Of a DNA stretch of 64,000 bases, positions 76 through 46,418 are shown piece by piece. The stretch lies in IMG/VR virus record IMGVR_UViG_2537561978_000005; one strand, written 5' to 3'. The notes below the pieces were generated by a model. The model saw only the letters and a list, made by a program, of their open reading frames with translations, ran no database searches and was not told the DNA's origin. This DNA is from a virus (taxonomy: Duplodnaviria; Heunggongvirae; Uroviricota; Caudoviricetes). A program made the translations under genes and the position numbers. The first letter of the stretch is position 1; every line of letters begins with the position of its first letter.

Positions 76-87
76 TTTCTAATACAT
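76..87. promoter_or_regulatory. operator-like motif TTTTCTAATACA upstream of the lpa-position ORF
   Basis: member of a TTTCTAAYA-core motif family recurring in >=8 intergenic regions; core resembles recalled P1 C1 operator consensus ATTGCTCTAATAAATTT. Confidence 0.3.
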
Positions 88-162
88 TCATCTTTTTACC
101 AGTCTATACAGTTTTAACATTCTCATTATCATCCCCTCGGTCATTTCCTGCCCGGGGGATTA

Positions 163-555
163 ATGGAACAAATCAGCAGCGCAGAAATTGCGGATATCAT
201 GATCAGGGCTGACTGCTATCTGACAGTCACTGAAATTACCACTCTCGCCAAAGAAAAATACCCTCATCTCCATGTTTCACGAGTAAGTGTAACTAACATC
301 ATTCGTCATTTTGTTCGTTCAAGCAGGGCAATCTGTGAGCTTGATGATCGTGTTTACCCACGAAAATACTGGTTGCATGGCCTGAACGGATATCAGTTCA
401 AGGTGCGTGGGCGAACCCCTGAATATGGCAGTTTACTGGTTAAAAACTGTAGCAGGAAATCAGTCGAACAGGCGCGAAAAGAGCAACGAGAGCTGGTGGA
501 CATGGCGAATAAGCTGTGGAATGCCGCCGTTAAAAAGCGTGGTGTTGCTTTATGA
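163..555 (+). CDS. small protein at the position of P1 lpa (late promoter activator); function unverified
   Basis: 130-aa ORF; stop overlaps pacA-like start (ATGA at 552-555); synteny lpa-pacA-pacB. Confidence 0.35.
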   Translation: MEQISSAEIADIMIRADCYLTVTEITTLAKEKYPHLHVSRVSVTNIIRHFVRSSRAICELDDRVYPRKYWLHGLNGYQFKVRGRTPEYGSLLVKNCSRKSVEQARKEQRELVDMANKLWNAAVKKRGVAL

Positions 556-1916
556 GTCTGGTTAATTGGGAGGAGCACCGCGCCCGCTTTATAGCGTTGC
601 GTGAAGAAAAAGGGATCACTGTAAAGGAATACTGTGAGGAGCATGGCCTTAGCTTCAATACAGCCAGAAAGCATCTCAATATGAAAAAAAATGAGGTGCG
701 GTCGCAGGTAAAGACAACAAAAAAAAGCACCAAATCACCTGAAAAAAAACGGGCGGGAAGAGCAACAAAAAAGCTGGAAGAGGGTGCAGAAAAAACAAAA
801 TTTACAGAAATTGACAATTCGCAGGGCGCAGGTTCTTTCCGAAGTATGCCGAGAAAGAAAACTTCGGATCATGAAAATAATTCAAATAATAACAATGAGA
901 TAAAAGAATCTGTCAGGAGATCATTGCGCGAAAAAATGGCGAAAATGATCCCCGAAGAAGATAAAAACGCCCCAAAAATTGAGGGATCTTCTGCAATGAT
1001 CCCTGACGGTGCTGTGCAGCGTGCCACATTGCCAACTACGAATGTGGCTCGCGATATGATGAAGAACGGCGCAGAAGAACACCTGCGGTTAGCAATTCAA
1101 ATGGCGCAAGAGCGCGCACTTCAGTATCAAAGCATTGTTGATCAGGAGGCCGAACGTCTACAGGCGGAAATAGACGCCTTGGGCGATAAAGAGCCAGAAG
1201 GAATGCACCCTGGGCAGCGCCTTCTCGGTCTAATCAGTGACGCGGCCTACTACATGAATGATTTTATCAGTAGGTTGGCAGCTATATATCAGTCCGAACA
1301 AAAGCTGCGACAGGGGGATGAAAAGCTTCGTCAGAGCGCTCGCCAGCAAGCATTCAAAGAGGCTGAGGCCAGAGAAAAACTCGAATTAGCACGCCTACAG
1401 GCCGAACAGCGTGGCAAAGAGATTGAATATCGCATTGGCGCTGACGCACGCGCAGCCAGAGTTATCGCCGCCGCTATACGTATGCGTGAGCGCGAGGAAC
1501 TGGATGATATCGGTGTTGCTGAATACATCGAGCGCCAGGGTGTCAGCGTCCCGGCTATCCTCGCGGCGCGCGCGGCGAAAGCTATCACTCTTCTCGAACC
1601 ACCTGTTTCTGACGTCAATGATGTTGATGATGAACAGCTGGACAAAGAGGCAAGGGAGTTTGCAACGCTTCAGGCTAACCATCCGCAATGGCTGGCAGAG
1701 CGCCGGGCGGATGTGGCAACCATTGTTGAAGAATTGGGGTGCGGAGATTACGACCGCAATGGCGAGCGTAAAGCTGGAGAATTCGAGGCCAACGACGAAG
1801 AGCTGGATATTGACCCTTCGGCAACGGCTGAAATTTACGGTGATTATGATGCATCTGATGCAGGGTATGACGCCGGAGATGATGATATCGCGATAGAACC
1901 GCCGGAGGATGATTAA
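552..1916 (+). CDS. pacA: terminase small subunit-like protein (PacA-like)
   Basis: 454-aa ORF translationally coupled (TAATG at 1914-1918) to large terminase; contains GATC-rich pac-like cluster. Confidence 0.55.
   Translation: MSLVNWEEHRARFIALREEKGITVKEYCEEHGLSFNTARKHLNMKKNEVRSQVKTTKKSTKSPEKKRAGRATKKLEEGAEKTKFTEIDNSQGAGSFRSMPRKKTSDHENNSNNNNEIKESVRRSLREKMAKMIPEEDKNAPKIEGSSAMIPDGAVQRATLPTTNVARDMMKNGAEEHLRLAIQMAQERALQYQSIVDQEAERLQAEIDALGDKEPEGMHPGQRLLGLISDAAYYMNDFISRLAAIYQSEQKLRQGDEKLRQSARQQAFKEAEAREKLELARLQAEQRGKEIEYRIGADARAARVIAAAIRMREREELDDIGVAEYIERQGVSVPAILAARAAKAITLLEPPVSDVNDVDDEQLDKEAREFATLQANHPQWLAERRADVATIVEELGCGDYDRNGERKAGEFEANDEELDIDPSATAEIYGDYDASDAGYDAGDDDIAIEPPEDD
867..1001. other. 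candidate pac site: five GATC hexamers (GGATCA, AGATCA, TGATCC, GGATCT, TGATCC) in 135 bp
   Basis: GATC at 867, 918, 947, 985, 998 inside pacA; P1 pac is a cluster of Dam-methylatable TGATCA/G hexamers within pacA. Confidence 0.4.
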
Positions 1917-3424
1917 TGGCTGGCGGGCGCAAGATTAAATGCGTCACCAGCGATCCACGCTGGCGCGATATGGTAATCAAATACCGCTACAACTTTACCC
2001 AGGCTGTAGTCGATATTTTTGGGATGTTCCCCTCCCACCAGCAGCAGCAGATCATTCAGTCAGTGCAGGAAACGGGGAGTAGGACGACCGTCACGTCCGG
2101 ACACGGAACGGGGAAGTCGTCCCTTACCGCGATGTTGCTGTTGATTTTTATGATCCTGTTCCCCGATGCCCGTGTCATCATTGTTGCTAACAAGATAGGC
2201 CAGGTAAAAACAGGCGTATTCAAATACGTTAAACAGTATTGGGCGAATGCAGTTAAGCGTCATGGGTGGTTGCAGACCTATTTTGTCCTCTCTGACACCA
2301 TGTTTTATGAGCGCTCCCGTAAGGGGATTTGGGAAGTTCTCTGCAAAGGTTATCGACTCGGCAACGAAGAAGCGCTGGCGGGGGAACACGCGGCACATTT
2401 GCTTCTAATTCTGGATGAAGCATCTGGTATATCTGATAAGGCGATCGGCGTAATGACCGGTGCTCTTACTGAAGAAGATAACCGGATGTTGATGCTATCC
2501 CAGCCAACAAGGCCAAGTGGTTATTTCTACGATTCGCACCATTCTCGAGCAAAAACCCCAGACAACCCGAAAGGGATCTGGACAGCAATTGTTCTTAACT
2601 CGGAAGAATCACCGTTCGTCACACCACAATTCATCAAGGAGAAGCTTCTGGAATATGGTGGGCGCGATTCTATTGAGTACATGGTCAAGGTGCTTGGTCA
2701 GTTCCCACGAGAAATTAACGGCTATTTGCTTGGTCGTGATGAATGCGATCGCTCTGCTCGCCGCAAGGTGTTGTTGGAGAAAAACTGGGGATGGGTGGCA
2801 ACGGCTGACGTTGGTAATGGGCGAGATAAGTCGGTCCTCAACATCTGCAAGGTATCAGGTCACAGGGATAAGCGGCGCGTTGTTAACTTTAAGGTAATGG
2901 AGATGCCTGGCACTATGGACCCATTGGCCTTTGCTGACTTCATATATAACGAATGTACGCCGGAAAAATACCCGAATATAACAATCGCGGTTGATGCTGA
3001 TGGTTTTGGTTCTGATACGTGTGCGCAGTTGGTGCGTCGTGGTGCGAACCCGGTACGTATTCGGTGGGGAAAACCCATGTTTGCGAACAAAGACAGGGAG
3101 CGATTTGTTAATCAGCGTGCCTACGCAAATATTATGGCGCGAGATGCCATAAAGTCAGGGCGTATGCGGATAGACAGTGACCCTAAAACGGCAGAGCAAG
3201 CGTCAAAAATCCCCTTTTTACTGAATGAAGAAGGGAAAATGGCGATGATGCGCAAAGAGCACATGCGGCAAAAGCTAAACATCAAATCGCCTGACCGATG
3301 GGATACCTACTGCTTCACTATGCTGGTGGACTATGTGCCTGCTAATGAAGATATTGGTGCCGAAATGGCAACTTTCCGAGATCAGGTTCTGGCGGATATC
3401 GAAATGCCGGATCTGGATATATAA
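1916..3424 (+). CDS. pacB: terminase large subunit (PacB-like)
   Basis: 502 aa; Walker A SGHGTGKS, Walker B LLLILDEAS, C-terminal acidic nuclease-type motifs ATADVGNG and IAVDADGFG. Confidence 0.8.
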   Translation: MAGGRKIKCVTSDPRWRDMVIKYRYNFTQAVVDIFGMFPSHQQQQIIQSVQETGSRTTVTSGHGTGKSSLTAMLLLIFMILFPDARVIIVANKIGQVKTGVFKYVKQYWANAVKRHGWLQTYFVLSDTMFYERSRKGIWEVLCKGYRLGNEEALAGEHAAHLLLILDEASGISDKAIGVMTGALTEEDNRMLMLSQPTRPSGYFYDSHHSRAKTPDNPKGIWTAIVLNSEESPFVTPQFIKEKLLEYGGRDSIEYMVKVLGQFPREINGYLLGRDECDRSARRKVLLEKNWGWVATADVGNGRDKSVLNICKVSGHRDKRRVVNFKVMEMPGTMDPLAFADFIYNECTPEKYPNITIAVDADGFGSDTCAQLVRRGANPVRIRWGKPMFANKDRERFVNQRAYANIMARDAIKSGRMRIDSDPKTAEQASKIPFLLNEEGKMAMMRKEHMRQKLNIKSPDRWDTYCFTMLVDYVPANEDIGAEMATFRDQVLADIEMPDLDI

Positions 3425-3425
3425 A

Positions 3426-3442
3426 GCCCCGCGATGCGGGGC
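3426..3442. terminator. GC hairpin GCCCCGC-GAT-GCGGGGC between convergent genes
   Basis: perfect 7-bp stem between pacB stop and end of minus-strand gene; A/T-rich flank on minus side. Confidence 0.4.
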
Positions 3443-3451
3443 CGGTTGTGA

Positions 3452-4489
3452 TTACCAGAGCTTCGCGGCGTACTGCGTTTGGGGGAATGTGTATCCGTAA
3501 CGTTCTTCGATTGCTTTGCCGTATTTTTTACGAGCTTCATTCAGTTTTATGCCGGTCAGGTCGTCTCCAGAGGCCATCATTACGTCTAACAATTCCAGAT
3601 CCATTTTATCCAGCCTTGCCATTGCTTCACGTGATGTACGTATCTTACGCTCAATGATATGGCGAATAGCCGGATCGGCATCCTCCAGCATCTTAGCGGA
3701 TTTCTGCTTAAGGCTTTCATTGCGAATATCGATGTTCCTTAAGATGTACGACTTCGCAACGTAGCTTGGCTGGTGTTTTTCCAGGTCACGAACACGATAT
3801 AAGTTAAAATCGCCGAGAAGGCTGCAAGGTACCGATTCGACGCCAGAATAAATTGTAATGCTCCGGCGCTCACCAACATTATTGACAACGGGGATCGTTG
3901 TCTTCGGTAGTCTTGCGAAAACCAATGCGCCATGTGCGCCAACTCTAAAGCGAGAAAGGGCATTGCTGCCTTCGATGTTTGTTGTCAGCACAACATCTGT
4001 ATATGCCTCTTTACGCGCCCGGTAGATCTCGCCTTCAGGCTCAGCTTCAAAGAAGCGCTGTTCTTCTTCAAGAGCACCTACGATTTGAGAAAAAACCCTA
4101 TTTTTCAGGCTTTTCTTTATGATTTTGTCGTATTTTTTGAGCAATTGTTCACGTGTAAATGTACGTGTTGTTGTAGCGCTTTGCACAACAACATGCGTGC
4201 TTTGATTGGTGTCCTCAATGATGAATGGGATCGGAGAATATACAGACTCAACAATGTTCGACGCTTTGCCGTCGGCATCGCGGCACATGTCAACGAAGGC
4301 TTTCCATTCAGCAAGACATTTTTCAGCTTCTTCTAATATGTTTTGGTCATGCGTTAATGCAACATGGCGGAATTCCTCGCCAGCATAACTGGTATCATGG
4401 AAAACAGAGTTTGCGACCACCAGCTCTTTCCACCGTTCAGCGGTTTGCAGGAACCGTTTGTACTCTTTCTCGATCGACTTCTTACTCAT
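3452..4489 (-). CDS. hypothetical protein at the position of the P1 c1/immC repressor gene; identity unverified
   Basis: 345-aa ORF convergent with pacB; operator-like motif immediately upstream; no motif I can assign. Confidence 0.55.
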   Translation of the reverse strand: MSKKSIEKEYKRFLQTAERWKELVVANSVFHDTSYAGEEFRHVALTHDQNILEEAEKCLAEWKAFVDMCRDADGKASNIVESVYSPIPFIIEDTNQSTHVVVQSATTTRTFTREQLLKKYDKIIKKSLKNRVFSQIVGALEEEQRFFEAEPEGEIYRARKEAYTDVVLTTNIEGSNALSRFRVGAHGALVFARLPKTTIPVVNNVGERRSITIYSGVESVPCSLLGDFNLYRVRDLEKHQPSYVAKSYILRNIDIRNESLKQKSAKMLEDADPAIRHIIERKIRTSREAMARLDKMDLELLDVMMASGDDLTGIKLNEARKKYGKAIEERYGYTFPQTQYAAKLW

Positions 4490-4507
4490 TATTCCTACTC
4501 GATTTAG

Positions 4508-4524
4508 TTTTCTAACATAAAATT
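4508..4524. promoter_or_regulatory. operator-like motif TTTTCTAACATAAAATT upstream of 3452..4489
   Basis: TTTAGTTTTCTAACATA shared almost exactly with the site at 18701-18719 (reverse orientation). Confidence 0.35.
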
Positions 4525-4698
4525 ACTATGACAAATTTATGTCGAATAACAGAGTGAGTAAAGGATCGAACTGTGATTTTTTGTCATCAAATTTAGAAAA
4601 CCAACTGTATAAACCACGCTTCGCAAATTAAAGACCATGAAGGCAACGTGTTACTGGTCAGAATCAATCTGTGATGGATTAAAAAAAATCGCCATTTT

Positions 4699-4732
4699 AT
4701 AACTTTAAATAATTGGCATTATTTAAAGTTAG
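4699..4732. other. lox-like site: 13-bp inverted arms ATAACTTTAAATA / TATTTAAAGTTAG around 8-bp asymmetric spacer ATTGGCAT
   Basis: 34-bp architecture and arms resemble loxP (ATAACTTCGTATA-8bp-TATACGAAGTTAT); 150 bp upstream of cre-like gene. Confidence 0.7.
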
Positions 4733-4883
4733 GCTATAATTATGGGTAGATGATCAGTATTGACATCACTGAAAATACGCGCCTCGAATCAAAGGCTTGA
4801 ATCTTGAAAATTAACTTATAGCTACCCTGTCATTTTTATATTTTTCGCGTAGCGTTATCTGTATATAGAGGTTAAATAGTTTC

Positions 4884-5912
4884 ATGAGTGAATTAATTAT
4901 CTCTGGCAGCTCCGGTGGTTTTCTGCGCAACATTGGCAAAGAGTACCAGGAGGCCGCAGAAAACTTTATGCGGTTCATGAATGACCAGGGGGCTTATGCG
5001 CCGAATACTCTGCGCGACCTCCGGTTGGTGTTTCATTCATGGGCGCGCTGGTGTCACGCTCGCCAGCTTGCCTGGTTTCCGATCTCACCAGAAATGGCCC
5101 GCGAGTATTTTCTTCAGCTGCATGATGCCGATCTGGCTTCGACCACCATTGATAAGCACTACGCCATGCTGAATATGCTGCTTTCGCATTGTGGCCTTCC
5201 GCCACTTTCGGATGATAAAAGTGTTTCTCTGGCTATGCGGCGCATCCGGCGCGAAGCGGCAACTGAAAAAGGCGAACGAACAGGCCAGGCTATACCGCTT
5301 CGGTGGGACGATCTGAAACTGCTCGACGTCCTGTTGTCCAGGTCAGAACGGCTGGTGGACCTGCGCAACCGGGCTTTTCTCTTTGTTGCATACAATACGC
5401 TGATGCGTATGTCGGAAATCTCGCGTATTCGTGTAGGAGATCTGGATCAAACAGGTGACACTGTCACGCTACATATTTCACACACGAAGACAATAACGAC
5501 CGCCGCCGGGCTTGATAAGGTGCTTTCCCGTCGCACTACCGCTGTGCTGAATGACTGGCTGGATGTTTCCGGGCTTCGCGAACATCCTGACGCAGTGCTG
5601 TTCCCGCCGATACACCGTAGCAATAAGGCCAGGATCACGACAACGCCCCTTACTGCACCTGCAATGGAGAAAATATTCAGCGACGCCTGGGTGTTGCTGA
5701 ATAAAAGAGATGCTACGCCAAACAAAGGAAGATACCGGACGTGGACCGGGCATAGTGCACGCGTCGGGGCCGCTATTGATATGGCTGAAAAGCAGGTGTC
5801 TATGGTGGAGATCATGCAGGAAGGAACCTGGAAGAAACCGGAAACACTTATGCGGTATCTTCGCCGTGGCGGCGTGTCTGTGGGGGCTAATAGCCGCCTG
5901 ATGGATTCGTAA
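4884..5912 (+). CDS. cre: Cre-like tyrosine site-specific recombinase
   Basis: 342 aa; aligns along its length with recalled P1 Cre incl. NRAFLFVAYNTLMRMSEISRIRVGDL, HSARVGAA, catalytic Y in LMRYLRRG. Confidence 0.9.
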   Translation: MSELIISGSSGGFLRNIGKEYQEAAENFMRFMNDQGAYAPNTLRDLRLVFHSWARWCHARQLAWFPISPEMAREYFLQLHDADLASTTIDKHYAMLNMLLSHCGLPPLSDDKSVSLAMRRIRREAATEKGERTGQAIPLRWDDLKLLDVLLSRSERLVDLRNRAFLFVAYNTLMRMSEISRIRVGDLDQTGDTVTLHISHTKTITTAAGLDKVLSRRTTAVLNDWLDVSGLREHPDAVLFPPIHRSNKARITTTPLTAPAMEKIFSDAWVLLNKRDATPNKGRYRTWTGHSARVGAAIDMAEKQVSMVEIMQEGTWKKPETLMRYLRRGGVSVGANSRLMDS

Positions 5913-5915
5913 ATT

Positions 5916-5930
5916 AAATTTCTAACACAT
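5916..5930. promoter_or_regulatory. operator-like motif AAATTTCTAACACAT downstream of cre
   Basis: TTTCTAACA core. Confidence 0.3.
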
Positions 5931-5985
5931 CTTTTTAGATTAACGCCTTTGCTGTAAAGTACCCTCGCCTATTTAGGAGGGTGCT

Positions 5986-6330
5986 TTGCAGAGTCAAATC
6001 ACGGAATCAAGACGCTTCAAGGTGGATGGTTACACCGTAACCTTCGCCGCTGGTGTTAAGAACAGTCATGCTGTCGTTGTGTTCGGCATCATGACCGGGC
6101 TTGAGGCCGTCCCTGTGTTTACCCTCGAAAAAAACTGGCGAAATCTGGAGGAAGCAGAAAGCTACGTCCGGAAAGTAACCATCATTGCCGCCGAAAAACT
6201 CCTGGCCCACTATCAGGAAAATTATCGCACTATGGTCGAGAAGATTAATCTCGCTTTCACTCGCCCCACTACCGGCTTTATTGCACCGGATACTAATGCC
6301 GGTCGATATCCTGCAAGGGGGTGTCGGTGA
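5986..6330 (+). CDS. hypothetical protein
   Basis: 114-aa ORF, TTG start with AGGAGGG RBS 5 nt upstream. Confidence 0.5.
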   Translation: MQSQITESRRFKVDGYTVTFAAGVKNSHAVVVFGIMTGLEAVPVFTLEKNWRNLEEAESYVRKVTIIAAEKLLAHYQENYRTMVEKINLAFTRPTTGFIAPDTNAGRYPARGCR

Positions 6331-6803
6331 AAACTTATTACCCATCTCTGAATTGTTACCCGTCTTCCTATCCAGAATTATCCGGGAAGCTGTTAGCTCT
6401 ATTAGCTAAAGCACCTACGGAATGGTTTAAGCCAGTCGTTATCAATCCACACTTCCTGGGTTACGGATCTGTTCGCACTCGTAACGAACTCAAAAACCTA
6501 CTGGCGCATGGATTCATTCGACACCGTGCCGGGAAAGGCTATCAGTTAGCGATTGCGCCAGAAGAGGCCGTGCGGCTATTCGCATATCGTGACAGCCAGA
6601 CAAAAACTCGGGTAATAGCTCAAATACTTCATAACGGCAGCACCTATGCCCGCCAGTTTGGCGGCGACACGTCGCAGTTCTTGCGGGCGGTGCGATCGCT
6701 GGATGAGCAAGGAGTTATTGAAAGTTCCTGTCTTCCTGTTCCTACCGTTCCACATATCAAACGTCGGGTTTACACCTTCACGCAGAGAGCTAAAAAACAA
6801 TGA
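6321..6803 (+). CDS. hypothetical protein
   Basis: 160-aa ORF; stop overlaps dut start (ATGA). Confidence 0.5.
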   Translation: MSVKTYYPSLNCYPSSYPELSGKLLALLAKAPTEWFKPVVINPHFLGYGSVRTRNELKNLLAHGFIRHRAGKGYQLAIAPEEAVRLFAYRDSQTKTRVIAQILHNGSTYARQFGGDTSQFLRAVRSLDEQGVIESSCLPVPTVPHIKRRVYTFTQRAKKQ

Positions 6804-7294
6804 TTTACGTAAAAGTGAAACGCCTACATCCGGCAGCAAAACTTCCAGCTTATGCCACCTCCGGATCGGCGGCGATGGATTTTGAGGCTGTTGAAATAAA
6901 ACCATGCGTCGATAGCAATGGTGCAATTTCCTCAAGCTGGTGGGTGTATACCGGACTGGCTATGGAGATCCCGCCCGGCTGGTGTCTGAAACTCTATCCG
7001 CGATCAGGATTGGGCTGCAAAAAACATACTCGCCTGGCTAACTGCGTAGGAATTATCGACTCCGATTATCGCGGCGAAATCATGGCAAAACTGATTACTG
7101 ATCCCGGCGGGGAAGGCGTTTGTCTCAAGCCTGGAATGGCTGTCATGCAAGGAATTTTTGAGCGTGTTGAACAAGTCTCACTAGTCGAGGTTGAGGAACT
7201 CAACGAAACGGAGCGTGGTGCTGGTGGCTTTGGTAGCACATCGGAAGGCCACTTTGAAATTAAGCGTTCACCGCTTCAGTACGAAAAGTTATAA
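6800..7294 (+). CDS. dut: dUTP diphosphatase (dUTPase)
   Basis: 164 aa; motifs RSGLG and GIIDSDYRGEI typical of trimeric dUTPases. Confidence 0.8.
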   Translation: MIYVKVKRLHPAAKLPAYATSGSAAMDFEAVEIKPCVDSNGAISSSWWVYTGLAMEIPPGWCLKLYPRSGLGCKKHTRLANCVGIIDSDYRGEIMAKLITDPGGEGVCLKPGMAVMQGIFERVEQVSLVEVEELNETERGAGGFGSTSEGHFEIKRSPLQYEKL

Positions 7295-7755: not shown

Positions 7756-8523
7756 ATGGAAAGCACTAAAACAATTCAATACCGCTTGCGTAATGGCCTG
7801 CTGGTGGCTGTTAACGCCGACATGTCACTGCCGTTTGACACGATTGAACGCACTATCATGACGTATCTCGGCTTTAATGAAGAGCTGAATGAAGAGCATG
7901 GCGTAGCTATATGGAGTGATGCAGACAGCGGCGTTCGTCGTTACATCACCGCCAGGGGCAAAGACTACTCTCTGGAAGAACTGTTTGCCCTTGCGCAGTC
8001 TTTCGAATGTGTAGCATTAGACCTGTTTAATGATCCTGCTATAGCGCAACGACTTATACGCGAGCTTGGGCTATCCGTTACACCAATTATATTTAAAAAT
8101 GGCAGCCTGACTGGCACATGGCGCGTAGAACGCATCTCAAACTACCTTCCATATAACCGACAGTTAAATGGAGTAATCTCCGGCGTTAACCAGCCCGTAG
8201 CGTGTGAAAATGTAAACCTAGTTGTCGCTGTTTTGGCAACCGCATGTCGTGTTATCGGTTTGGCTAAACAGGCATTTATTCATTTCCCAAATGGTGCAGA
8301 AGGTAGCGCAGAGATTATCGCGTGTGATTTCGAATTTACCTGGATGCTACGCGAATATCTGGACCAAACAGTATTCCGTGCCGAAGAACTGGATATGTAT
8401 ATCACGTCAACGATTCCAGACGATGTGCGAGCTGAAGCAATCGCTACAGCCAGGGCGAAATGCCGTGCGGCGATTGCAGAACAGGCCAAAGAAGAAGTTA
8501 AGGAAGTGGCAGATGGCGACTAA
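7756..8523 (+). CDS. hypothetical protein
   Basis: 255-aa ORF; 3' end overlaps next gene by 11 bp. Confidence 0.5.
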   Translation: MESTKTIQYRLRNGLLVAVNADMSLPFDTIERTIMTYLGFNEELNEEHGVAIWSDADSGVRRYITARGKDYSLEELFALAQSFECVALDLFNDPAIAQRLIRELGLSVTPIIFKNGSLTGTWRVERISNYLPYNRQLNGVISGVNQPVACENVNLVVAVLATACRVIGLAKQAFIHFPNGAEGSAEIIACDFEFTWMLREYLDQTVFRAEELDMYITSTIPDDVRAEAIATARAKCRAAIAEQAKEEVKEVADGD

Positions 8524-9607: not shown

Positions 9608-9612
9608 TAGTA

Positions 9613-9642
9613 AGAAGCCCGCCTGGTTGAGCGGGCTTCTTT
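9613..9642. terminator. bidirectional intrinsic terminator GAAGCCCGC-loop-GCGGGCTTC + TTTT
   Basis: 9-bp stem between convergent genes (8513..9607 and doc). Confidence 0.6.
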
Positions 9643-10023
9643 TCAAATATTGGAACCATATAGTTCACGTAGTTTTTTCGCTACTGAAGATACGGGGATT
9701 TCACCAGTTGCAGCCCCCACTGCAAGCTCCACCAGCACGGGATCATCATATACCTGTATACCGTTACGGCGTAGAAATAGCAGCGCACTGTTTAGCGCGG
9801 TACGCTTATTGGCATCATTGAATATATGCCCTCTCGCCGTAGCCACCAGGTAGGTGGCGGAGACTTCGAAAAGGTCGGTGATCTCTTCGTAGGCAACTCT
9901 GGCCTGAACTCTCCCGATAATGGCCTCTGCCCTACCCGGATCTGACATTCCCGGCAGGCCGCCGTAGCGGCTTATATTCGCATCATGAAGCGCAATAAGT
10001 TCTTCCGGTGATATATGCCTCAT
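9643..10023 (-). CDS. doc: Doc toxin (death on curing; Fic-family kinase)
   Basis: 126 aa nearly identical to recalled P1 Doc ([40 protein letters not shown]...). Confidence 0.95.
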
Positions 10024-14161: not shown

Positions 14162-14171
14162 GTGTTACTCC

Positions 14172-14435
14172 TTAACCCGCAGTGCTTTCAACTGATGAGG
14201 GGAACAAAATCTTTTCATCAAACCCTGCATTCATATCATGAACAGCAACACACCAATCCATCGACGAACGATTATCAAGAGTCTCCATGATTTCATCCAT
14301 GCGGCGCAGGTCATACAGGTAAATGCTTTTATCGCCAATGGTGTAAAAACCAATTTTTTTCGGTGATGGACAGCGATCAAGAACGTCCTGTAATTCGCTC
14401 AACCATGCTTGTTCTTTTTTTGTCAAAGTTGCCAT
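14172..14435 (-). CDS. hypothetical protein
   Basis: 87-aa ORF in tightly packed operon. Confidence 0.4.
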   Translation of the reverse strand: MATLTKKEQAWLSELQDVLDRCPSPKKIGFYTIGDKSIYLYDLRRMDEIMETLDNRSSMDWCVAVHDMNAGFDEKILFPSSVESTAG

Positions 14436-14436
14436 A

Positions 14437-17664: not shown

Positions 17665-18660
17665 TCAGTTATTGAACGTGATCACTCCGCGCTCAATGGC
17701 GAAGTCGAAAAGCTGGTTAGCGGCTACGTAAAGGCGTATGCCATGTGCTTTTTCCCATGCCCGGACATCGTTTTCTGCGCTTCTGGCGCAGTCATCGCAA
17801 AGAGGAACAGTCCAGCGGTCGTGTTCGTTTAACGAGCGGGCGCGGTACATGAATGGGTGATTAACCTTGCCGCCGCAGCCTACACACGGGCGAGACACCA
17901 CAAACCGGAGATAAGCCGGGCTTTTTCCGAGTAAGGTTTTTGGACGGCGCATATATAGGAGGCCAGAATCTTCATCGACGGACAGATTGACGATCTGCTC
18001 TGCGGAAATATCCACCAGCTCGCGGGTACTATGCTCCCAAGTAATATCCGACTCTTTCAGAGTGCCGGTAGGGATTTCAGTTTTTGGCTGACAAAATGCA
18101 ATGCGACCAGCTTCATCAGGCAGTTCGTCTTTAAGATTCCGGCGAATGGCCCAAAAGGTGAGTTCAACCATGCTCAGATCGCGATCTGGCGGAAGTTTTA
18201 ACTCGCTGGCAGCCCAGTTCATAATCCAGTTGGCGCGATTCAGTGACAGTTGGTCTTCCAGCTTGCCGTATCCCTTCATCATGTATTCCGCATCATGCTT
18301 CCAGCACAGGCGAACGGCAGAACCGTTATAGAAATGGGTGGTTAGCTGGTGGCTGCAATCGCGCTTATCATGCACCTGGCAATCGTGAATGTTGGTGCTA
18401 ACCCAGTGAACGAGAGAATCCTCACCACCTAACGCGTTAAATACGCGCTCACTTTGAAAAAAGGGTGCCAGTGACTGGTTGGCAACCAGTGAATAATTCA
18501 GGTCAACGACACCATCAGGGGTGTTTTCAGCCTGTTCACGCGGCAATGGGGATATAAGAAAACGGCGTCCTGCGCCGATGTAATTGCTGGTGGGCTTATC
18601 TACAGGAAAGACAGCCACACCAGTTTCATTTACGACATATGGGGTGATTATTGCACTCAT
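17665..18660 (-). CDS. hypothetical protein with CxxC...CxxC zinc-binding motif
   Basis: 331 aa; CVGCGG ... CDDC. Confidence 0.55.
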   Translation of the reverse strand: MSAIITPYVVNETGVAVFPVDKPTSNYIGAGRRFLISPLPREQAENTPDGVVDLNYSLVANQSLAPFFQSERVFNALGGEDSLVHWVSTNIHDCQVHDKRDCSHQLTTHFYNGSAVRLCWKHDAEYMMKGYGKLEDQLSLNRANWIMNWAASELKLPPDRDLSMVELTFWAIRRNLKDELPDEAGRIAFCQPKTEIPTGTLKESDITWEHSTRELVDISAEQIVNLSVDEDSGLLYMRRPKTLLGKSPAYLRFVVSRPCVGCGGKVNHPFMYRARSLNEHDRWTVPLCDDCARSAENDVRAWEKAHGIRLYVAANQLFDFAIERGVITFNN

Positions 18661-18700
18661 AATGCATACCGACTCTGTTTTGTTCCGATCGGTAAAATAA

Positions 18701-18732
18701 TATGTTAGAAAACTAAAATCAATGTTCTAACG
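18701..18732. promoter_or_regulatory. pair of operator-like motifs (TGTTAGAAAACTAAAAT and TGTTCTAACG)
   Basis: internal to leftward operon, between 18889..19200 and 17665..18660. Confidence 0.3.
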
Positions 18733-18888
18733 TGATTTTGAGTGCGTAAATGATTTGATCAGACTTTAAGCTGCCCTCCCTTCACCTGCATTAGCGTCAG
18801 ATTTCCGCTAAAAACCGCGCCCGTGTCTAGTTTCTATAGCCAGAACCATCAATACGGCTATATAAATTCACTTCATGCAGAGCCTGGG

Positions 18889-21550: not shown

Positions 21551-21570
21551 TTTGTGTTAGAAAATCAATT
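21551..21570. promoter_or_regulatory. operator-like motif TTTGTGTTAGAAAATCAATT in divergent promoter region
   Basis: between leftward operon start and ref-like gene. Confidence 0.35.
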
Positions 21571-21632
21571 TTGAATATCTAACCATTTTGATCAATCATA
21601 GAAAAATCGTTGAAAAGTAAGAGACTGCCATC

Positions 21633-22211
21633 ATGCAGAAACAGAGTTATTGGGAGAAACAGAGACAAAAAGCCATGCAAAAATTGGCTGACCCGGCCTG
21701 GCGAGAGGAACAAAGGGCAAAGCGCCTTCAACAAGCTCAACGCCAGCAGCAGCGAGCGAGAGAAAAAGCCGCATCGCCTGAATATCGGCAAAAGAAAATT
21801 GAAAAAGCAAAGCAATATGAACAGCGGAGAAAAGATAAAGCTGTATCCGCTCCGTCCAAAAAAACACGCACGTCACGCGGCCTGAAAGGCAGATCACTCA
21901 CAGCCGATGAACGCCGGATACAGACCGCTATCGGTGCTCTCCCCTGCATTGCCTGCCATATTCACGGGCAACATAGCCCAGTGGTATCCCTGCACCATAT
22001 CTTCGGGAGAACGGCAGAGAACGCGCATAAATATGTCCTCCCTTTGTGTAAATGGCACCACCAGTACGCAGCGCCAGCCGAGGTCAGAGAACAATATCCC
22101 TGGCTGGTCCCTGTTCATGCTGACGGAAAAATAGGCGGAAAAGCAGATTTCATGCGGCACAATGCCGATGAAATGACGTTGTATCAGATGGCGATTGAGT
22201 TGATAAATTAG
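21633..22211 (+). CDS. ref: Ref-like HNH-family nuclease
   Basis: 192 aa; highly basic low-complexity N-terminal ~95 aa then His/Cys-rich core (LPCIACHIHGQH ... LCKWHH), as recalled for P1 Ref. Confidence 0.5.
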   Translation: MQKQSYWEKQRQKAMQKLADPAWREEQRAKRLQQAQRQQQRAREKAASPEYRQKKIEKAKQYEQRRKDKAVSAPSKKTRTSRGLKGRSLTADERRIQTAIGALPCIACHIHGQHSPVVSLHHIFGRTAENAHKYVLPLCKWHHQYAAPAEVREQYPWLVPVHADGKIGGKADFMRHNADEMTLYQMAIELIN

Positions 22212-22226
22212 TTTTCTAACATTTTA
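22212..22226. promoter_or_regulatory. operator-like motif GTTTTCTAACATTTT
   Basis: immediately after ref-like stop, upstream of immI-like region. Confidence 0.3.
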
Positions 22227-22710: not shown

Positions 22711-22759
22711 AATACTGACTGTTGCGCCCTGGCATTATCGTGGGGTATATTTCTACGGC

Positions 22760-22838
22760 ACCTTAGAAAAACGGGTGCCGGGATTGAGACCCCGGATAAT
22801 GCAAAAGGCGACACAGACGCCGAAAGCGTCTTTTTTTG
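22760..22838 (+). ncRNA. candidate small structured RNA (c4-like antisense regulator?)
   Basis: three consecutive hairpins ending in intrinsic terminator; contains GATTGAGACC repeated at 22971-22980 near icd-position RBS, and complementary GTCTCAA at 22940-22946. Confidence 0.3.
22815..22838 (+). terminator. intrinsic terminator AGACGC-CGAAA-GCGTCT + T7
   Basis: 6-bp GC-rich stem followed by TTTTTTT. Confidence 0.65.
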
Positions 22839-23022
22839 TGTCATGCCATCGCACAGCCATACGTAGCGTATAGCTCCAAGATCAATGGTAGTGCTGGCTG
22901 GGCTGCCGAAAGGCAGGCCGGTTCCCTTTTGCGCCGGTAGTCTCAACCCAGCCAGTGCTACCGCCATTGAGATTGAGACCTCACGCGGTAGCTCCTTAAA
23001 TTAGCAAAAGGAGGCTGCCAAT

Positions 23023-27968: not shown

Positions 27969-28185
27969 GTAAACAAAATGAAGTTTTATGTTATAAAAAC
28001 AATTAACTACATCAACATGATTTAGGCCAAATTTCGGTCAAAAAATAAAATCCACAAAAAGTGGTTGACACTATTTTGGAAATCACAAACTGCACATAAT
28101 CCATCGCGCTAACGGCTCCCGTTGAAGGTTCTTTTGACGATTAACTTTCAGCCGAAGCGCGGTAGGGAGTCATAACGCCAAAGCA

Positions 28186-35754: not shown

Positions 35755-35795
35755 ATTTGTGTTAGATAATTAATATGTATTTTCTAACACAAATG
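35755..35795. promoter_or_regulatory. inverted-repeat operator-like element CATTTGTGTTAGA(N15)TCTAACACAAATG upstream of hrdC
   Basis: 13-bp inverted arms containing the TCTAACA core. Confidence 0.45.
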
Positions 35796-35802
35796 GTGAG
35801 AC

Positions 35803-36708
35803 ATGAGATCAGTCGCTTTCAAAAATATCTTCATCTATCGTCTTTCACGCGAAGTTAGCTGGGATACTGCAGAAGTAAATGCAGCCCTTAGCAAGTTTGT
35901 GTTTACCCCATGCGGTTCTCAGGATATGGCTAAAGCTGGTTGGACCTCCGTTCTTGGTGACAACCTCACCCATGAATACCAGGGTTTTCTTCTGATACAG
36001 CATAAACGAGAGGAAAAAATCCTACCTTCTCAAGTGCTCAAAGAAGAGTTACAGAAAAAAATCCTGACACTTGAAGAAGAGCAAGACAGAAAGCTGAAGA
36101 AGACCGAAAAAGATTCGCTGAAGGATGAAGTGCTTCACTCTCTTCTTCCTCGTGCTTTCACGAGAAAATCACTCGCCAAAATCCTGATCGACCGCAGCAA
36201 CCATCTGGTATTCGTTGAGGCAAGCAGCGCCAAAAAGGCAGAGGACCAGCTGGCTTTATTGCGAAAATCGCTCGGCAGCCTGCCTGTCATTCCATTCACA
36301 CCACGCGAACCGCTGGAAATTACAATGACCGAGTGGTTTAAAAACGGCTTCCCTGCCGGATTTACAGCAGGTGAAGACGCCACATTAAAGGGTCTGCTCG
36401 ATAATGGTGGTGCCGTTCGCTGCAACAAAGTTGATCTACAGTCCGACGAGATTATGTCTCACATTGAGGCGGGGAAAGTAGCTACGACCGTTGCAATTAA
36501 CTGGATGGACCGCGCGTCGTTCAGAGTCAACGATGATATGAGTATCAAAGCCCTGACATTCTGTGATGATCTCTATGACCAGAACGACGATATCGACCGG
36601 GAGGATGTAGCACAACGATTTGATGCTGATTTCGTGCTCTTTACGGGCGAATTATCTGCACTGTTTAACGCGCTGGTGGAGGCCATTGGCGGTGAAGCAG
36701 AACGTTAA
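35803..36708 (+). CDS. hrdC: RdgC-like recombination-associated protein
   Basis: 301 aa; long colinear matches to recalled E. coli RdgC ([66 protein letters not shown]); hrdC-dmt order as in P1. Confidence 0.85.
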
Positions 36709-38980
36709 CCTTAGATATGGTTCAGTTTGCAGTGGAATTGAAGCAGCGAGCATTGCCTGGGAACCGTTGGGTATGCGTCCGGCGTGGTTTGCTGAAATCG
36801 AGCCTTTTCCATCTGCCGTTCTTGCGCACCGCTGGCCCCATGTCGCCAACCTTGGCGATATGACAAAACTTGCCAAAAAAGTCCTGGCTGGGGAAATCGA
36901 ATCCCCTGATGTGCTCGTCGGGGGAACACCTTGTCAGGCATTCAGTATCGCTGGATTACGTGGTGGGCTTGATGATGAGCGTGGCGCGCTAACTTTAAAG
37001 TATGTGGAGCTTGCAAATGCAATTGACGACAAACGGGCTGAGTCATTTCTCAAACCAGCCGTTATCGTCTGGGAAAATGTCCCAGGAGTCTTGTCATCGG
37101 CAGATAACGCCTTCGGATGTTTCCTTGCCGGATTGGCTGGAGAAGATGCGCCATTCGAACCAGGTGCTCGACCTGAATCACGAAAAAGTAACGCGTTCTG
37201 GCGGTGGGATGTCAAAACCAGTTGCCATGCTCCAAAGTGGCCGCAGTGTGGTTGTATTTATGGACCGCAGCGAAAAGTGGCCTGGAGAATCCTTGATGCC
37301 CAATACTTCGGAGTGGCACAACGACGCCGACGCGTGTTTGTTGTCGCAAGTGCTCGAACAGACCTCGATCCCGCAACGATACTTTTTGAGTTCGAAGGCG
37401 TGCGCCGGGATATTGCGCCGAGCCGAAAAAAGAAGGAAATCGCTTCCGCCATTATTGCAAATGGCGCTGCAATCAGTGGCGAAAGCCTAAATCCATGCCT
37501 ACACGCTGACATTCCACCCGGTATGAAATCGACGAAAGCCGTAAACGCTTTCAGGATGGCAGCATTTGGGGAATATATTGACGATGAAACCGCATCGACA
37601 GTAAAGGCAAGAGATTTTAAAGATGCCACTGACCTTACCGTTTTTAGCAGCACAGGAGCAGGTTTTTGGTCAGAAGGGCATGGTACATTGCGGGCACGTG
37701 AGCAAGAAAGCCATGAGCATCTTGTTACATTAGCTTTTCCTGAGCGTATGAGCGGTACACAACATGCTGCAACTAAGAATACTTCACCATCTCTAATGGC
37801 TCAAAATCCAACAGCCGTTTGCTATGAAGTAAGAAACGCAGAAGTAGCTGTCCGCCGTCTTACCCCTGTCGAATGTGAAAGGCTGCAAGGTTTTCCTGAT
37901 GGGCATACGTTGATCCCTACGGAAAAGCGTAAAACAATTTCCTCAGATGAACTGGCATACCTTCGCAATCACTATCCAGATTTAAGCGAAGAAGAAGCCG
38001 CGATGCTCGCTGCTGACGGGCCGCGTTACAAAGCGATTGGCAACAGCATGGCAGTTCCTGTTATGCAATGGATTGGGTGTCGCATTCTTGCGACTGTGGA
38101 AGCTAAACAGCCAAAAACAATAAATACCATTACCTACACAAGAAAACTCCGGACTCCGGATGAATATGAGCGTCCGATCTTCAAATGGGTAGGCGGTAAA
38201 TTCTCAGAGTTGCCTACAGTGCTTGAGCATCTACCACACGGCAAGCGGTTAATAGAACCGTTCGTTGGTGGCGGTTCTGTATTTACGAATGCAGGATTTC
38301 GCCACAACCTGCTTAATGATATTAACGGTGACCTGATTAACTTCTATCAGACATTGCAGCGAGAAGGACATTCGCTCGTCACGCTGTCATATAGTTTTTT
38401 CCAAAATTACAACAACGCTGACGCTTACCTCGAAGTGCGTGAGGCATTTAACAGAGGAAAGTATGACCAGCTACATCATGCTGCCGCCTTTTTGTACCTT
38501 AATCGGCACTGTTTTAATGGCGTAACGCGGTACAACCAAAATGGCGAGTTCAACGTGGGGTATGGCAAATACAAAGCGCCCTACTTCCCACATGCAGAGA
38601 TGGAGGCATTTTTGGCTGATGACGTACTCAAAAACACGTCCTTTGTATCAGGTGACTTTGCTGGCGTCATCGAGGCGGCTGGTGAAGGCGATGTGATTTT
38701 TTGCGATCCGCCGTATGAACCGCTGCCGGATACAGAAGGGTTTACCAGTTATTCAGGAAATAGCTTCCGTTTCGACGAACAGAAACGGCTGGTATCTCTA
38801 TTGGTGGAAGCCCACCAGCGCGGCGCTAAGGTAGTGATAACAAATAGTGGTGCGCCAAACATCCGTGAACTATATGAAGGAAACGGGTTTAAAGTACATC
38901 ATATGGCAGCCAGACGGTCGGTTTCCTGCAAGGCGTCAACACGTGTAGTTGCTAACGATATAATTGCAATAATGAAGTAA
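36692..38980 (+). CDS. dmt: bifunctional DNA methyltransferase: N-terminal C5-cytosine MTase fused to C-terminal Dam-like N6-adenine MTase
   Basis: [12 protein letters not shown] (PCQ) and ENVPGV motifs N-terminally; DPPY motif C-terminally; likely GTG start 36692 (GGAGG 9 nt upstream) rather than track start 36620. Confidence 0.85.
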
Positions 38981-39028: not shown

Positions 39029-40690
39029 TTAACCTAACTTCGCCCAGGTATCACGCAGCCCAACGGTGCGGTTAAATACCGGTTTTTCCGCCGTAGAATG
39101 GCGGCTATCGAGGCAGAAGTAACCTTCACGCTCAAACTGGAATGCTTTACCCGCAACCGCATCTTTCAGCGACGGTTCAGCAAAGCCCTGTTTGATCACC
39201 AGCGATTCCGGGTTAATCACCGACAGGAAATCATCCGCAGCACCAGGGTTCGGCACGCTGAACAGACGGTCGTACAGACGGATTTCAACCGGCAGCGCAT
39301 GTGCCGCGCTCACCCAGTGAATAACACCTTTGACTTTACGACCATCTGCCGGATCTTTGCTTAAGGTGTCGGCGTCATAAGTACAGAAGATGGTGGTGAT
39401 ATTGCCTTCGGCATCTTTCTCCACGCGTTCTGCCTTAATGACGTAAGCATTACGCAGACGCACTTCTTTACCCAGCACCAGACGTTTGTACTGCTTGTTA
39501 GCTTCTTCGCGGAAATCGGCGCGATCGATCCAAATCTCACCGCTAAACGGCACCTGGCGGCTACCCATTTCCGGTTTGTTTGGATGGTTCGGCATGGTGA
39601 CCATTTCGCCTTCGCCCTGGTAGTTTTCGATAACCAGTTTCACCGGATCGATAACCGCCATTGCGCGCGGGGCATTTTCGTTGAGATCTTCACGGATGCA
39701 GGATTCCAGCGACGCCATCTCAATGGTGTTGTCCTGCTTGGTCACGCCGATGCGTTTGCAGAACTCACGAATAGAAGCCGCAGTGTAACCACGACGACGC
39801 AGACCGGAAATGGTCGGCATACGCGGGTCATCCCAGCCTTCAACGTGCTTGTCGGTTACCAGCTGGTTCAGCTTACGCTTGGACATCACGGTGTATTCCA
39901 GATTCAGGCGCGAGAATTCGTACTGGCGCGGATGAACAGGAATGGTGATGTTGTCCAGTACCCAGTCGTACAGACGACGGTTGTCCTGGAACTCCAGCGT
40001 GCACAGAGAGTGCGTAATGCCTTCCAGCGCATCGCTGATGCAGTGGGTGAAGTCGTACATCGGGTAGATGCACCACTTGTTGCCAGTCTGGTGGTGTTCA
40101 GCAAACTTAATACGGTACAGCACCGGATCGCGCATGACGATAAACGGCGACGCCATGTCGATTTTCGCACGCAGGCAGGCTTTACCTTCTTCAAAACCAC
40201 CAGTACGCATTTTCTCGAACAGCGCCAGGTTCTCTTCAACGCTGCGGGCGCGGTACGGGCTGTTTTTACCCGGCTGAGTCAGGGTGCCACGATATTCACG
40301 GATCTGTTCCGGCGTCAGTTCATCGACATACGCCAAACCTTTGTTGATTAGTTCAACAGCATAGGCATGGAGTTTGTCAAAATAATCGGAGGAGTAACGG
40401 ATGTTTCCAGACCAGTGAAAACCTAACCATTCAACGTCGTTTTTAATCGACTCGACGTACTCGATATCTTCTTTTACCGGGTTAGTGTCGTCGAAACGCA
40501 GGTTGCACTGGCCTTTATAGTCCTGGGCGATCCCGAAGTTCAGGCAGATAGATTTCGCATGACCAATATGCAGATAGCCATTCGGTTCCGGCGGAAAACG
40601 GGTATGTACTGTGGTGTGCTTACCACTGGCCAGATCTTCATCGATGATCTGACGAATAAAGTTAGTCGGGCGGGCTTCTGCCTCACTCAT
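39029..40690 (-). CDS. glnS: glutaminyl-tRNA synthetase (GlnRS), full length
   Basis: 553 aa essentially colinear with recalled E. coli GlnS incl. HIGH motif PNGYLHIGH and VMSKR motif; flanked by phage/plasmid genes, not chromosomal neighbours. Confidence 0.95.
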
Positions 40691-45355: not shown

Positions 45356-45521
45356 TTACTCCCCTTGTTTAGTGCCAGAGGACACGCCAGTGCTGTTAAA
45401 CAAGTATCCGACATACGCTGAACAGTTATTCAGCACGATCGACGAATGCAACCAACGAAACGCACTGAATAACCAAAAAAACAGGGAGATTTGGGAAGGG
45501 AAGGGGGATCAAGGCTCCTGA
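45189..45521 (+). CDS. o-spanin-like outer-membrane lipoprotein, overlapping i-spanin in another frame
   Basis: lipobox LSGC after signal peptide; start may be Met at 45210. Confidence 0.5.
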   Translation: MKSLALKMRYAVLGLTMCVCLMTLSGCSGNGQKPSTSVPVKITVEATSKPQANLIDYSPCLVPEDTPVLLNKYPTYAEQLFSTIDECNQRNALNNQKNREIWEGKGDQGS

Positions 45522-45967
45522 AGCCAGATGTCCTGGCTGTCAGCTTCTTCGAAACCGTGACAGACGTTAAAGTCACTCAAGCGATACTGACGCTGACGGC
45601 CTCTATTTCGCTCATGCCAATGCATGTATCCACCAGCAAATGCCAGCGGACAATCACTATAGCCTATGTAACCAATACCATTCCCCAAACGTGCTTCGCG
45701 CGCACCGGCTTTCCAGGACAGTAGAAAAGAGTCACGATCCGCCAGCATAACAACAAAATCGTCCGGATCTCCGATACAGTGAAGAATACCTGCCTTACAT
45801 AACTGCTTGAGCGCTTTGGGCTGGCTCAGGATGTCTTCTCCGTAATACTGAAAACAATCATCAACAACAGCGGGATAGCCTGCCGGGGGATTCAGGCTGG
45901 TTGGTATAGCTGACGCGATCGCCAGCATTAAGCGATATTGTGTTTTTGATGGGTTAACGTGACTCAT
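45509..45967 (-). CDS. hypothetical protein
   Basis: 152-aa ORF. Confidence 0.45.
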   Translation of the reverse strand: MSHVNPSKTQYRLMLAIASAIPTSLNPPAGYPAVVDDCFQYYGEDILSQPKALKQLCKAGILHCIGDPDDFVVMLADRDSFLLSWKAGAREARLGNGIGYIGYSDCPLAFAGGYMHWHERNRGRQRQYRLSDFNVCHGFEEADSQDIWLQEP

Positions 45968-45983
45968 TTTGTCCCTTGTTTAC

Positions 45984-46418
45984 TCATTGTCGCCATGCAT
46001 TTTTTAACTCAGGAATATCTGCCATTTCAATTAACTTGCGAAGTCCAGCACTGACTTTCCCATTGCCAACCATAGCAAGCCAATCTCTTACAGCTTTCGG
46101 CATGTAGAGCGTTGCAGTTACCGGCTCTTCAACCCTGGCAGGACATCCGCATACAGGCCATTTAATTGACTCCATAACTTCGGATGCCGGGGTGAGGGCG
46201 GGGACATTGAGTATATCTCTACCAGAAAACTGGATAACGATCCGTTCAGCGAGCGAGAGTATCTCACTTTCGGCAAGAATTGATGCCAACTGCGCCTCAA
46301 CAAGAAAGCGACTTGTTGTGTTCAGAGAGTGGCTCTTAGCGCCATTTTTATACGAAACAAAGATTCGATACGCCATAACTCTAATGATTTGTGTTAGAAT
46401 ACTAAAATTAAACCACAT
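45984..46418 (-). CDS. hypothetical protein
   Basis: 144-aa ORF; operator-like motif upstream. Confidence 0.45.
   Translation of the reverse strand: MWFNFSILTQIIRVMAYRIFVSYKNGAKSHSLNTTSRFLVEAQLASILAESEILSLAERIVIQFSGRDILNVPALTPASEVMESIKWPVCGCPARVEEPVTATLYMPKAVRDWLAMVGNGKVSAGLRKLIEMADIPELKNAWRQ
46388..46408. promoter_or_regulatory. operator-like motif TTTGTGTTAGAATACTAAAAT
   Basis: divergent region between 45984..46418 and capsid-like gene. Confidence 0.3.

Follow-up and report, generated by a model that had tools for sequence, protein, structure and literature searches.

What reads the short, A/T-rich sites that recur between the genes of a P1-related plasmid prophage? The question is raised by a 64,000-nt stretch of viral DNA, IMG/VR record IMGVR_UViG_2537561978_000005 (the window, which covers part of the replicon), in which an earlier look at the letters alone (the sequence-only reading) had noticed a dispersed motif, mostly at the starts of operons, and had taken it for the diverged operator set of this element's own immunity repressor, a C1-type protein. 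The C1 operator network of phage P1 is textbook knowledge, and phage D6 is a sequenced relative. We find that the dispersed sites are very probably operators of the D6-type element's own C1 repressor, and homology, placement, synteny and change of the motif between lineages all point that way.

The element itself is readily placed. Escherichia phage D6 is the sole megablast match to positions 3000-7000 of the window, at 97-98% identity, and when the whole window is compared with the D6 genome (BLASTN), collinear blocks of 92-99.6% identity run through it in reverse orientation, interrupted by segments that have been replaced relative to D6 (8496-9653, 13489-17362, 24464-27911, 36708-38150 and 53655-55022). 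Because of these collinear blocks and the several replaced segments, the window is, as far as its sequence tells, some 64 kb from a P1-related plasmid prophage that resembles D6, a mosaic variant distinct from it. In GenBank, D6 has annotations for c1, lpa, pacAB, dre/rox, ref, hrdC, icd and antirepressors, and neither of its two records marks any operator. Text searches for D6 operators or for the motif returned nothing relevant, the text of the D6 genome paper lying outside that search.

A dispersed asymmetric motif confined to intergenic DNA

The motif is present at all eight loci that had been listed for it, as ten sites in all. It is A/T-rich, 17-21 bp long, and has the core TTTCTAACA. 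When the ten sites are oriented on TCTAA they fall under one asymmetric consensus, AWWTTARTTTTCTAACAYAWW, with the information concentrated in about 17 columns and with dyad symmetry lacking in single sites. Two copies were thought to share 17 identical bases, and indeed the 17-mer TTTAGTTTTCTAACATA occurs exactly at 4503 (+) and 18701 (-), with copies carrying two mismatches at 22207 and 46390. An unbiased k-mer scan of the window places TCTAACACA and TGTTAGAAAA among its most over-represented words, the other top words being Chi and a repA iteron word.

The search with a weight matrix and the enrichment test that the sequence-only reading had called for both favour it. Over the whole window the core TTTCTAAYA is seen 9 times against 1.19 expected, a count reached in none of 100 dinucleotide-preserving shuffles. 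A matrix of 21 columns, built from the ten window sites, returns exactly those ten at a threshold of at least 20 bits, where 0.01 are expected. Leave-one-out scores are 21-27 bits for nine of the sites and 10 bits for the degenerate site at 18716. Two core-only matches, at 31511 and 52370, were set aside as chance occurrences with matrix scores below 9 bits.

The obvious concern is that such a motif might be no more frequent than A/T-rich intergenic DNA would make it. We therefore compared it with an order-2 model trained on intergenic-like DNA alone: in the 7,969 bp of such DNA in the window (GC 0.42) there are 8 cores against 0.82 expected and 9 matrix hits against 0.06 expected, the maxima in 500 simulations being 5 and 2, respectively. 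The same control on D6, using its own annotation, gives 12 cores against 1.3 expected and 14 matrix hits against 0.09. The motif thus stands well above its compositional background in both genomes.

Placement is equally consistent. Every site in the window is intergenic, as had been claimed, with at most 7 of 21 nt overlapping a stop codon, and in D6 all 14 sites are centred in intergenic DNA, although coding sequence makes up 90% of the genome. The sites point either way with respect to the gene that follows them, and the downstream start codon lies 10-75 nt from the sites, or about 200 nt away for the immI operon. We also ran the window-derived matrix on the approximately 32 kb of D6 that are absent from the window; with a matrix that had seen only window sites, four extra D6 sites were found, all of them intergenic (Table 1).

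The sites lie where P1 keeps its C1 operators

The operators of P1 C1 have a 17-bp asymmetric consensus, ATTGCTCTAATAAATTT, and 22 of them are dispersed over the P1 genome (PMC8546580). The P1 RefSeq record annotates Oref, Omat, Ossb, Oc4, OrepL, Orlf, Odmt, Obanab, O26, Oppp, OpmgRa/b, OpmgT and Olpa, and matches to the operator consensus also occur near P1 c1. The consensus and the dispersed operators that the sequence-only reading gave for P1 are thus borne out by both the publication and the annotation. The further assertion, that the window has sites at lpa, c1, ref, immI and hrdC-dmt, holds: on comparison with RefSeq, each of these lies at the position of a P1 operator, and the extra D6 sites have P1 counterparts as well (Table 1).

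The two phages share positions and differ in sequence. With up to 3 mismatches allowed, the P1 consensus has no match in the window, and the D6-type matrix finds nothing of 14 bits or more in P1. This absence of cross-matches fits two distinct immunity specificities. Because specificity differs and a P1-type operator is absent, the D6-type element should be heteroimmune to P1. By eye, the P1 and D6 motifs can be aligned in either orientation with much the same success (9-10 of 17 positions), so that the difference between them in bipartite geometry could stem from a flipped monomer or from a one-turn shift.

The presumed reader of the motif was described as a C1-type repressor, and that description is upheld by its being a distant homologue of P1 C1. 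In BLASTP the two proteins are 21% identical over 240 aa (pairwise E 2e-8), and homologues of the window's C1 carry the Pfam domain PF27008, Phage_P7_repressor_C1. A joint alignment of both C1 types (22 sequences) has 14 invariant columns across the first ~245 residues, and D6-type C1 proteins have about 85 extra C-terminal residues that are predicted to be helical. An exhaustive profile search for C1 gave 131 clusters at 50% identity, about 100 of them full length.

The motif changes with the C1 lineage

If C1 reads these sites, one might expect the motif to change as C1 changes while its positions are kept. PLSDB holds 149 plasmids with the window's C1 type, whose C1 identities fall into bands of at least 99%, ~90%, 80%, ~68% and ~30%. 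In elements whose C1 is 80, 68, 51 or 44% identical to the window's, the TTTCTAAC core is kept at the c1, recombinase-downstream and lpa positions, and in the 51% and 44% elements the left flank of the motif drifts. Where C1 is 44-80% identical, the sites ahead of c1 and lpa are conserved and their flanks are not. The 68% band includes the Salmonella plasmid pK91, a conjugative plasmid with a c1-dre remnant only, in which two sites were found; as a remnant carrier it was unsuitable for motif discovery over a whole replicon.

Two more distant elements have motifs of their own. In Leclercia pE1_003 (C1 30% identical) the motif is (G)ATAGWRATTCTAAGG; copies precede c1, overlie the recombinase stop codon, follow pmgS, and occupy the ref-divergent region and the gap between the repL-like gene and pro. 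In Pantoea pPSP-26e (C1 28% identical) it is CACAYAATTCTAAAT, with thirteen copies whose positions include those after the recombinase gene, upstream of c1, in the pmgR-pmgS gap and after pro; inverted CACAYAATTCTAAAT pairs precede hrdC and one other operon, convergent at a spacing of 14 bp where the D6-type pairs are divergent at 21 bp. Neither the D6 nor the P1 motif is present in pE1_003 or pPSP-26e. When the four lineages are aligned on their common core they read CTAAT (P1), CTAAC (D6), CTAAG (Leclercia) and CTAAA (Pantoea), and the base 3' of CTAA may be a specificity-determining position. That each lineage has its own motif at conserved positions, with the core of the experimentally defined P1 operator in common, is the strongest computational support for the operator reading.

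Single and paired sites

Of the eight loci, those at lpa, the pdcB-like gene, the ref-divergent region and hrdC are bipartite, and the remaining four (c1, dre-downstream, the ref 3' end and orf52) are monovalent. In a plus-strand alignment the bipartite loci have TTAGA-N16-TCTAA in identical columns, so that the core centres are 21 bp apart, or two helical turns. The geometry is constant at five independent loci; it holds at lpa of relatives whose C1 is 44% (L007) and 80% identical, and the lpa pair, with an offset of 17, recurs in L007 and in NZ_CP104667.1. At lpa the core and its partner are conserved in the relatives L006 and L007, together with a downstream TATCAT -10 element.

Conservation is sharpest at c1. 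Among elements with C1 44-100% identical, TGTTAGAAAA is the sole fully conserved block upstream of the gene; it lies 12-22 nt ahead of the start codon and 3' of a conserved promoter-like TTTACT-17-TAAATT. The site at 4501..4521 probably serves autoregulation of c1. L006 and L007 have a perfect TTTTCTAACA core at the position of a degenerate copy in the window (4592-4600). This degenerate copy is one of four additions to the loci listed earlier, the others being the weak partners at 51-71 (-) and 21568-21588 (+) and a possible site at 27985-28005, for which the argument is its position (P1 Omat precedes mat), with about 0.8 chance hits of at least 12 bits expected in the window.

Which protein reads the motif?

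Several observations weigh against assigning the sites to C1. Relaxed sigma-70 matches (8 of 12 positions) overlap sites at 6 of the 8 loci, and under strict sigma-70 scanning none of the sites has a promoter; because the matches are relaxed ones and the strict scans are empty, overlap between sites and promoters is only weakly supported. At lpa, the candidate pair ends about 17 nt upstream of a conserved -35-like element and does not overlap it. The geometry of the pairs also departs from the P1 example Obanab, in which the cores are 13 bp apart and convergent, where the D6-type cores are 21 bp apart and divergent. For three loci (dre-downstream, pdcB-upstream and orf52) the P1 annotation offers no counterpart. 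We infer by analogy that C1 binds and represses, and with what stoichiometry, and parallel divergence of another regulator in the same elements would give the same pattern of motif and lineage.

This last point, together with the three unmatched loci, is what recommends the idea that some other DNA-binding protein of the element, whether an additional repressor, an activator or a cofactor of C1 that itself contacts DNA, has diverged in parallel with C1, and that C1 reads something else. The link from C1 to the motif is indirect, and the compared elements differ in many genes, so that the lineage motifs are not uniquely C1's. Yet eight positions match annotated P1 C1 operators specifically, the best-conserved copy stands 12 nt before c1 in every relative, CTAA, the core of the P1 C1 operator, is common to the motifs of all four lineages, and the k-mer scan of the window offers no other dispersed intergenic motif, its remaining top words being Chi and repA iterons. 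We consider such a parallel regulator improbable.

Could the motif instead be a promoter or UP-like element that the loci share, or a by-product of A/T-rich intergenic composition? In favour of this, the sites are A/T-rich and located in promoter regions, and the motif contains TAACAT and TAGAAT, which look like -10 hexamers, but the excess survives models of intergenic DNA alone in the window and in D6 (see above), the motif is 17-21 bp long and carries ~26-29 bits per site, it occurs in both orientations and in inverted pairs of fixed spacing, and related phages with the same host RNA polymerase use another motif, all of which makes this explanation very unlikely. Least probable, in our view, is that the phage regulates these loci through a protein of its host, be it nucleoid-associated or regulatory (IHF, Fis, H-NS or a specific transcription factor). 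A/T-rich asymmetric sites of such length are typical of IHF and Fis, and P1 uses IHF at several sites; however, four motifs occupy the same positions in closely related enterobacterial hosts, so that the motif tracks the phage lineage, and the sites depart from the IHF consensus WATCAANNNNTTR.

We thus return to C1, and to what the map would mean if C1 is the reader. In a lysogen, C1 would bind each asymmetric ~17-21 bp site (consensus TTARTTTTCTAACAYAW), by analogy with P1, and bound C1 would block the sigma-70 promoters that overlap or abut the sites. Silencing of lpa would keep all late genes off. Also silenced would be the immI antirepressor operon (C4-icd-ant), ref and the early operon that diverges from it, hrdC with the methylases, the operon that follows dre, the pdcB-like gene and the orf52/53 genes, as would repL, a second icd/ant operon and pmgR/S beyond the window. 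C1 would restrain its own production by way of the c1-proximal site, 12 nt ahead of the gene. At the four bipartite loci, where the half-sites face each other, two C1 molecules could lie on the same side of the helix, over the promoter.

Site-by-site map

Table 1. Candidate C1 sites and associated features of the window, with the further D6 sites and the P1 operators at equivalent positions
Position	Strand	Feature	Score (bits)	Location or remark	P1 counterpart
51..88		bipartite operator (candidate)	51-71 (-) 10.4, weak; 68-88 (+) 26.1	upstream of lpa	Olpa
3452..4489	-	c1, 345-aa C1-type prophage repressor, presumed motif binder		100% identical to D6 C1	
4501..4521	+	monovalent operator (candidate)	27.8	12 nt upstream of c1 start codon	c1-region operators
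4592..4600	-	degenerate second copy of the motif upstream of c1, TTTTCTAAA, weak call		~80 bp upstream of c1-proximal site, inverted	
5911..5931	+	monovalent operator (candidate)	26.4	on stop codon of dre (cre homologue)	
18699..18736		bipartite operator (candidate)	18699-18719 (-) 28.6; 18716-18736 (+) 20.4	upstream of pdcB-like gene (17665..18660, -)	
21551..21588		bipartite operator (candidate)	21551-21571 (-) 29.2; 21568-21588 (+) 8.9	divergent ref / leftward-operon region, upstream of ref	Oref
22205..22225	+	monovalent operator (candidate)	27.1	on ref stop codon; heads immI-like operon	Omat, same position on ref stop codon
22758..24179	+	immI-like module		isrK-like RNA, C4 antisense RNA, icd, antirepressor (23238-24179; icd/antirepressor per D6 annotation)	
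22758..22836	+	isrK-like Hfq-binding RNA	59 (Rfam RF01394, above gathering score)	immediately upstream of C4 RNA	
22881..22968	+	C4 antisense RNA	76 (Rfam RF01695, above gathering score)	ahead of icd and antirepressor	
27985..28005	-	possible weak site TAATTGTTTTTATAACATAAA	13.5	upstream of mat homologue	
35756..35793		bipartite operator (candidate), 38-bp imperfect palindrome	28.9 and 26.5	10 nt upstream of hrdC (35803..36708)	Odmt/Op68, upstream of uhr-hrdC-dmt
46388..46408	-	monovalent operator (candidate)	27.5	12 nt upstream of leftward D6_52/53 homologues	
D6 9066		extra D6 site	26.5	after pmgS	OpmgR / OpmgT (pmgR/S)
D6 10315		extra D6 site	29.8	between pmgR and pmgS	OpmgR / OpmgT (pmgR/S)
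D6 21260		extra D6 site	31.8	upstream of icd/antirepressor	Oc4
D6 22463		extra D6 site	18.0	upstream of repL	OrepL

Some loci call for comment beyond the table. The next operon after the site on the dre stop codon, orf117-dut, begins 55 nt downstream, and a lineage-specific site is found at this dre-downstream position in L006, L007, pK91, NZ_CP104667.1, Leclercia pE1_003 and Pantoea pPSP-26e. Among the relaxed promoter matches, the pdcB-upstream pair overlaps TTGATT-17-TATTTT on the minus strand, the ref-divergent pair overlaps matches in both directions, and the site on the ref stop codon includes the -10 of TTGAGT-16-TAACAT. The pair before hrdC heads the hrdC-methylase operon. The site at 46388 is divergent from the major capsid gene, and its D6 equivalent is at 54201-54221, before D6_52 at 54233. 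Calling the region behind ref immI-like, as the sequence-only reading did, was correct, since C4 and isrK-like RNAs recognised by Rfam lie between the 22205 site and icd/ant.

Other repeats and accessory segments

Besides the operator candidates, the window is rich in two other words. Chi, GCTGGTGG, occurs 42 times on both strands against 1.7 expected, and k-mer scans find its excess equally extreme in the Leclercia and Pantoea relatives. The strongly enriched word AGCACACAT/ATGTGTGCTG was considered as a second regulatory motif and rejected, because it proved to mark two groups of iterons beside repA. The groups, at 53649-53860 and 54789-54880, together hold ten copies of (T)CCCNNCAGCACACAT (E 0.13 for the 10-mer) and lie on either side of a repA-like open reading frame (ORF) at 53863..54726 (-), which is D6_42 and carries pfam01051 in the D6 annotation. 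They look like plasmid-replication iterons, arranged like P1 incC/incA.

The distant relatives have repeats of their own. Pantoea pPSP-26e is strongly enriched in the palindromic words TGTTTATAAAC (16 copies, E 0.16) and ATGTTTGCAAAC (12-13 copies). Leclercia pE1_003 (L010) has tandem CTGTATGA units at 30195-30227 and dispersed ACTGTATGAC copies, 8 in all, and these CTGTATGA/ACTGTATGAC repeats could be iterons or another family of binding sites.

Two further features of the window concern cargo. The replaced segment at 24464-27911 is low in GC (~0.40), is absent from D6 and holds five ORFs, one of which (26214-26843) is dCTP deaminase-like (PF22769, E 1e-30) while the remaining four have no Pfam match; the segment may be an accessory or defence cargo module. 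A 553-aa ORF at 39029-40690 (-) is the counterpart of D6_62, annotated as glutaminyl-tRNA synthetase, which is unusual cargo for a phage-plasmid.

A possible Tus-like fold for C1

P1 C1 is an oddity in that it has no recognised DNA-binding motif and reads asymmetric operators, and predicted structures offer a lead. A profile of C1 finds no sequence relative in the PDB at E values up to 10. The model of the window's C1 has a predicted local distance difference test score (pLDDT) of 73 and a predicted template modelling score (pTM) of 0.46, and when it is compared with the PDB in Foldseek the top four matches are all Tus-Ter complexes (E 5e-5, ~315 aligned columns, template modelling (TM) score 0.25), the next match having E 0.28. 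In the PDB, no structure matches the predicted models of either C1 type better than Tus, at a low TM of 0.25 and moderate pLDDT values of 73 and 81.

P1 C1 and Tus both bind as monomers. At the level of sequence, homology is not detectable: alignment of C1 profiles of 9 and 121 sequences with Tus in hhalign gave probabilities below 1%, and the best phmmer E value between C1 and Tus was 0.003 in a set of 160 sequences. We also scored TerA-D against the P1 and D6 matrices as possible Ter-like operators, and rejected the idea when they did no better than shuffles (a fraction of 0.13-0.35 reaching the score). Text searches for a link between Tus and C1 found no paper.

A Tus-like fold of C1 is therefore plausible but unproven, as predicted models suggest it, and if true it would explain the oddity of P1 C1. 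The broader proposal, that the C1 family consists of Tus-fold, monomer-type binders in which each lineage reads an asymmetric site around an invariant CTAA and the flanks set specificity, is one that we put forward tentatively and regard as somewhat doubtful. If it proves right, the immunity groups of the P1 supercluster could be read directly from genome sequence, and the family would supply natural orthogonal repressor-operator pairs with a recognition mode that is not helix-turn-helix and is common to a replication terminator.

Significance and comparison with known systems

A specialist would expect a D6-type element to have a diverged operator set; what this analysis adds is the explicit list of sites with their consensus, the conserved bipartite geometry and the comparison of four lineages around a shared CTAA core. 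Together they provide a regulatory map for D6-type phage-plasmids, which are widespread in E. coli, Salmonella and Shigella, naming the promoters that would be under the master repressor and the sequence that would define the immunity group. With a common CTAA core and lineage-specific flanks, repressor-operator specificity in the P1 supercluster becomes testable, and the immunity types of phage-plasmids, including those that carry resistance genes, may become predictable from sequence.

Three known systems bear comparison. D6 itself (MF356679.1 / AY753669.1) has a C1 identical to that of the window and a counterpart for every window site; it differs in that the window is a mosaic in which several segments have been exchanged. 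E. coli Tus-Ter, in which a monomer binds an asymmetric 23-bp site, resembles the C1 system in that both proteins act on asymmetric sites, whereas Tus arrests replication forks, C1 represses transcription and the two proteins have no sequence similarity.

The third system is the C1 system of P1 and P7, the immC part of their tripartite immunity. The two differ in several ways: the recognition sequence is TTARTTTTCTAACAYAW in the D6 type and ATTGCTCTAATAAATTT in P1; D6-type C1 has 345 aa, with its additional helical C terminus, and P1 C1 has 283; the 227 bp that separate c1 from rox in the D6 type have no annotated coi-like ORF; and the D6 type has added sites after dre, before pdcB and before orf52. 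The likenesses concern the organization of the two systems. In both, homologous PF27008 repressors occur together with many asymmetric sites of ~17 bp, dispersed over a plasmid prophage of ~90 kb; in both, the candidate or known targets are c1, lpa, ref, the ref 3' end, hrdC-dmt, c4-icd-ant, repL and pmgR/S; and in both, monovalent and divalent sites are mixed, a CTAA core is shared, and a module of C4 antisense RNA, icd and antirepressor stands alongside.

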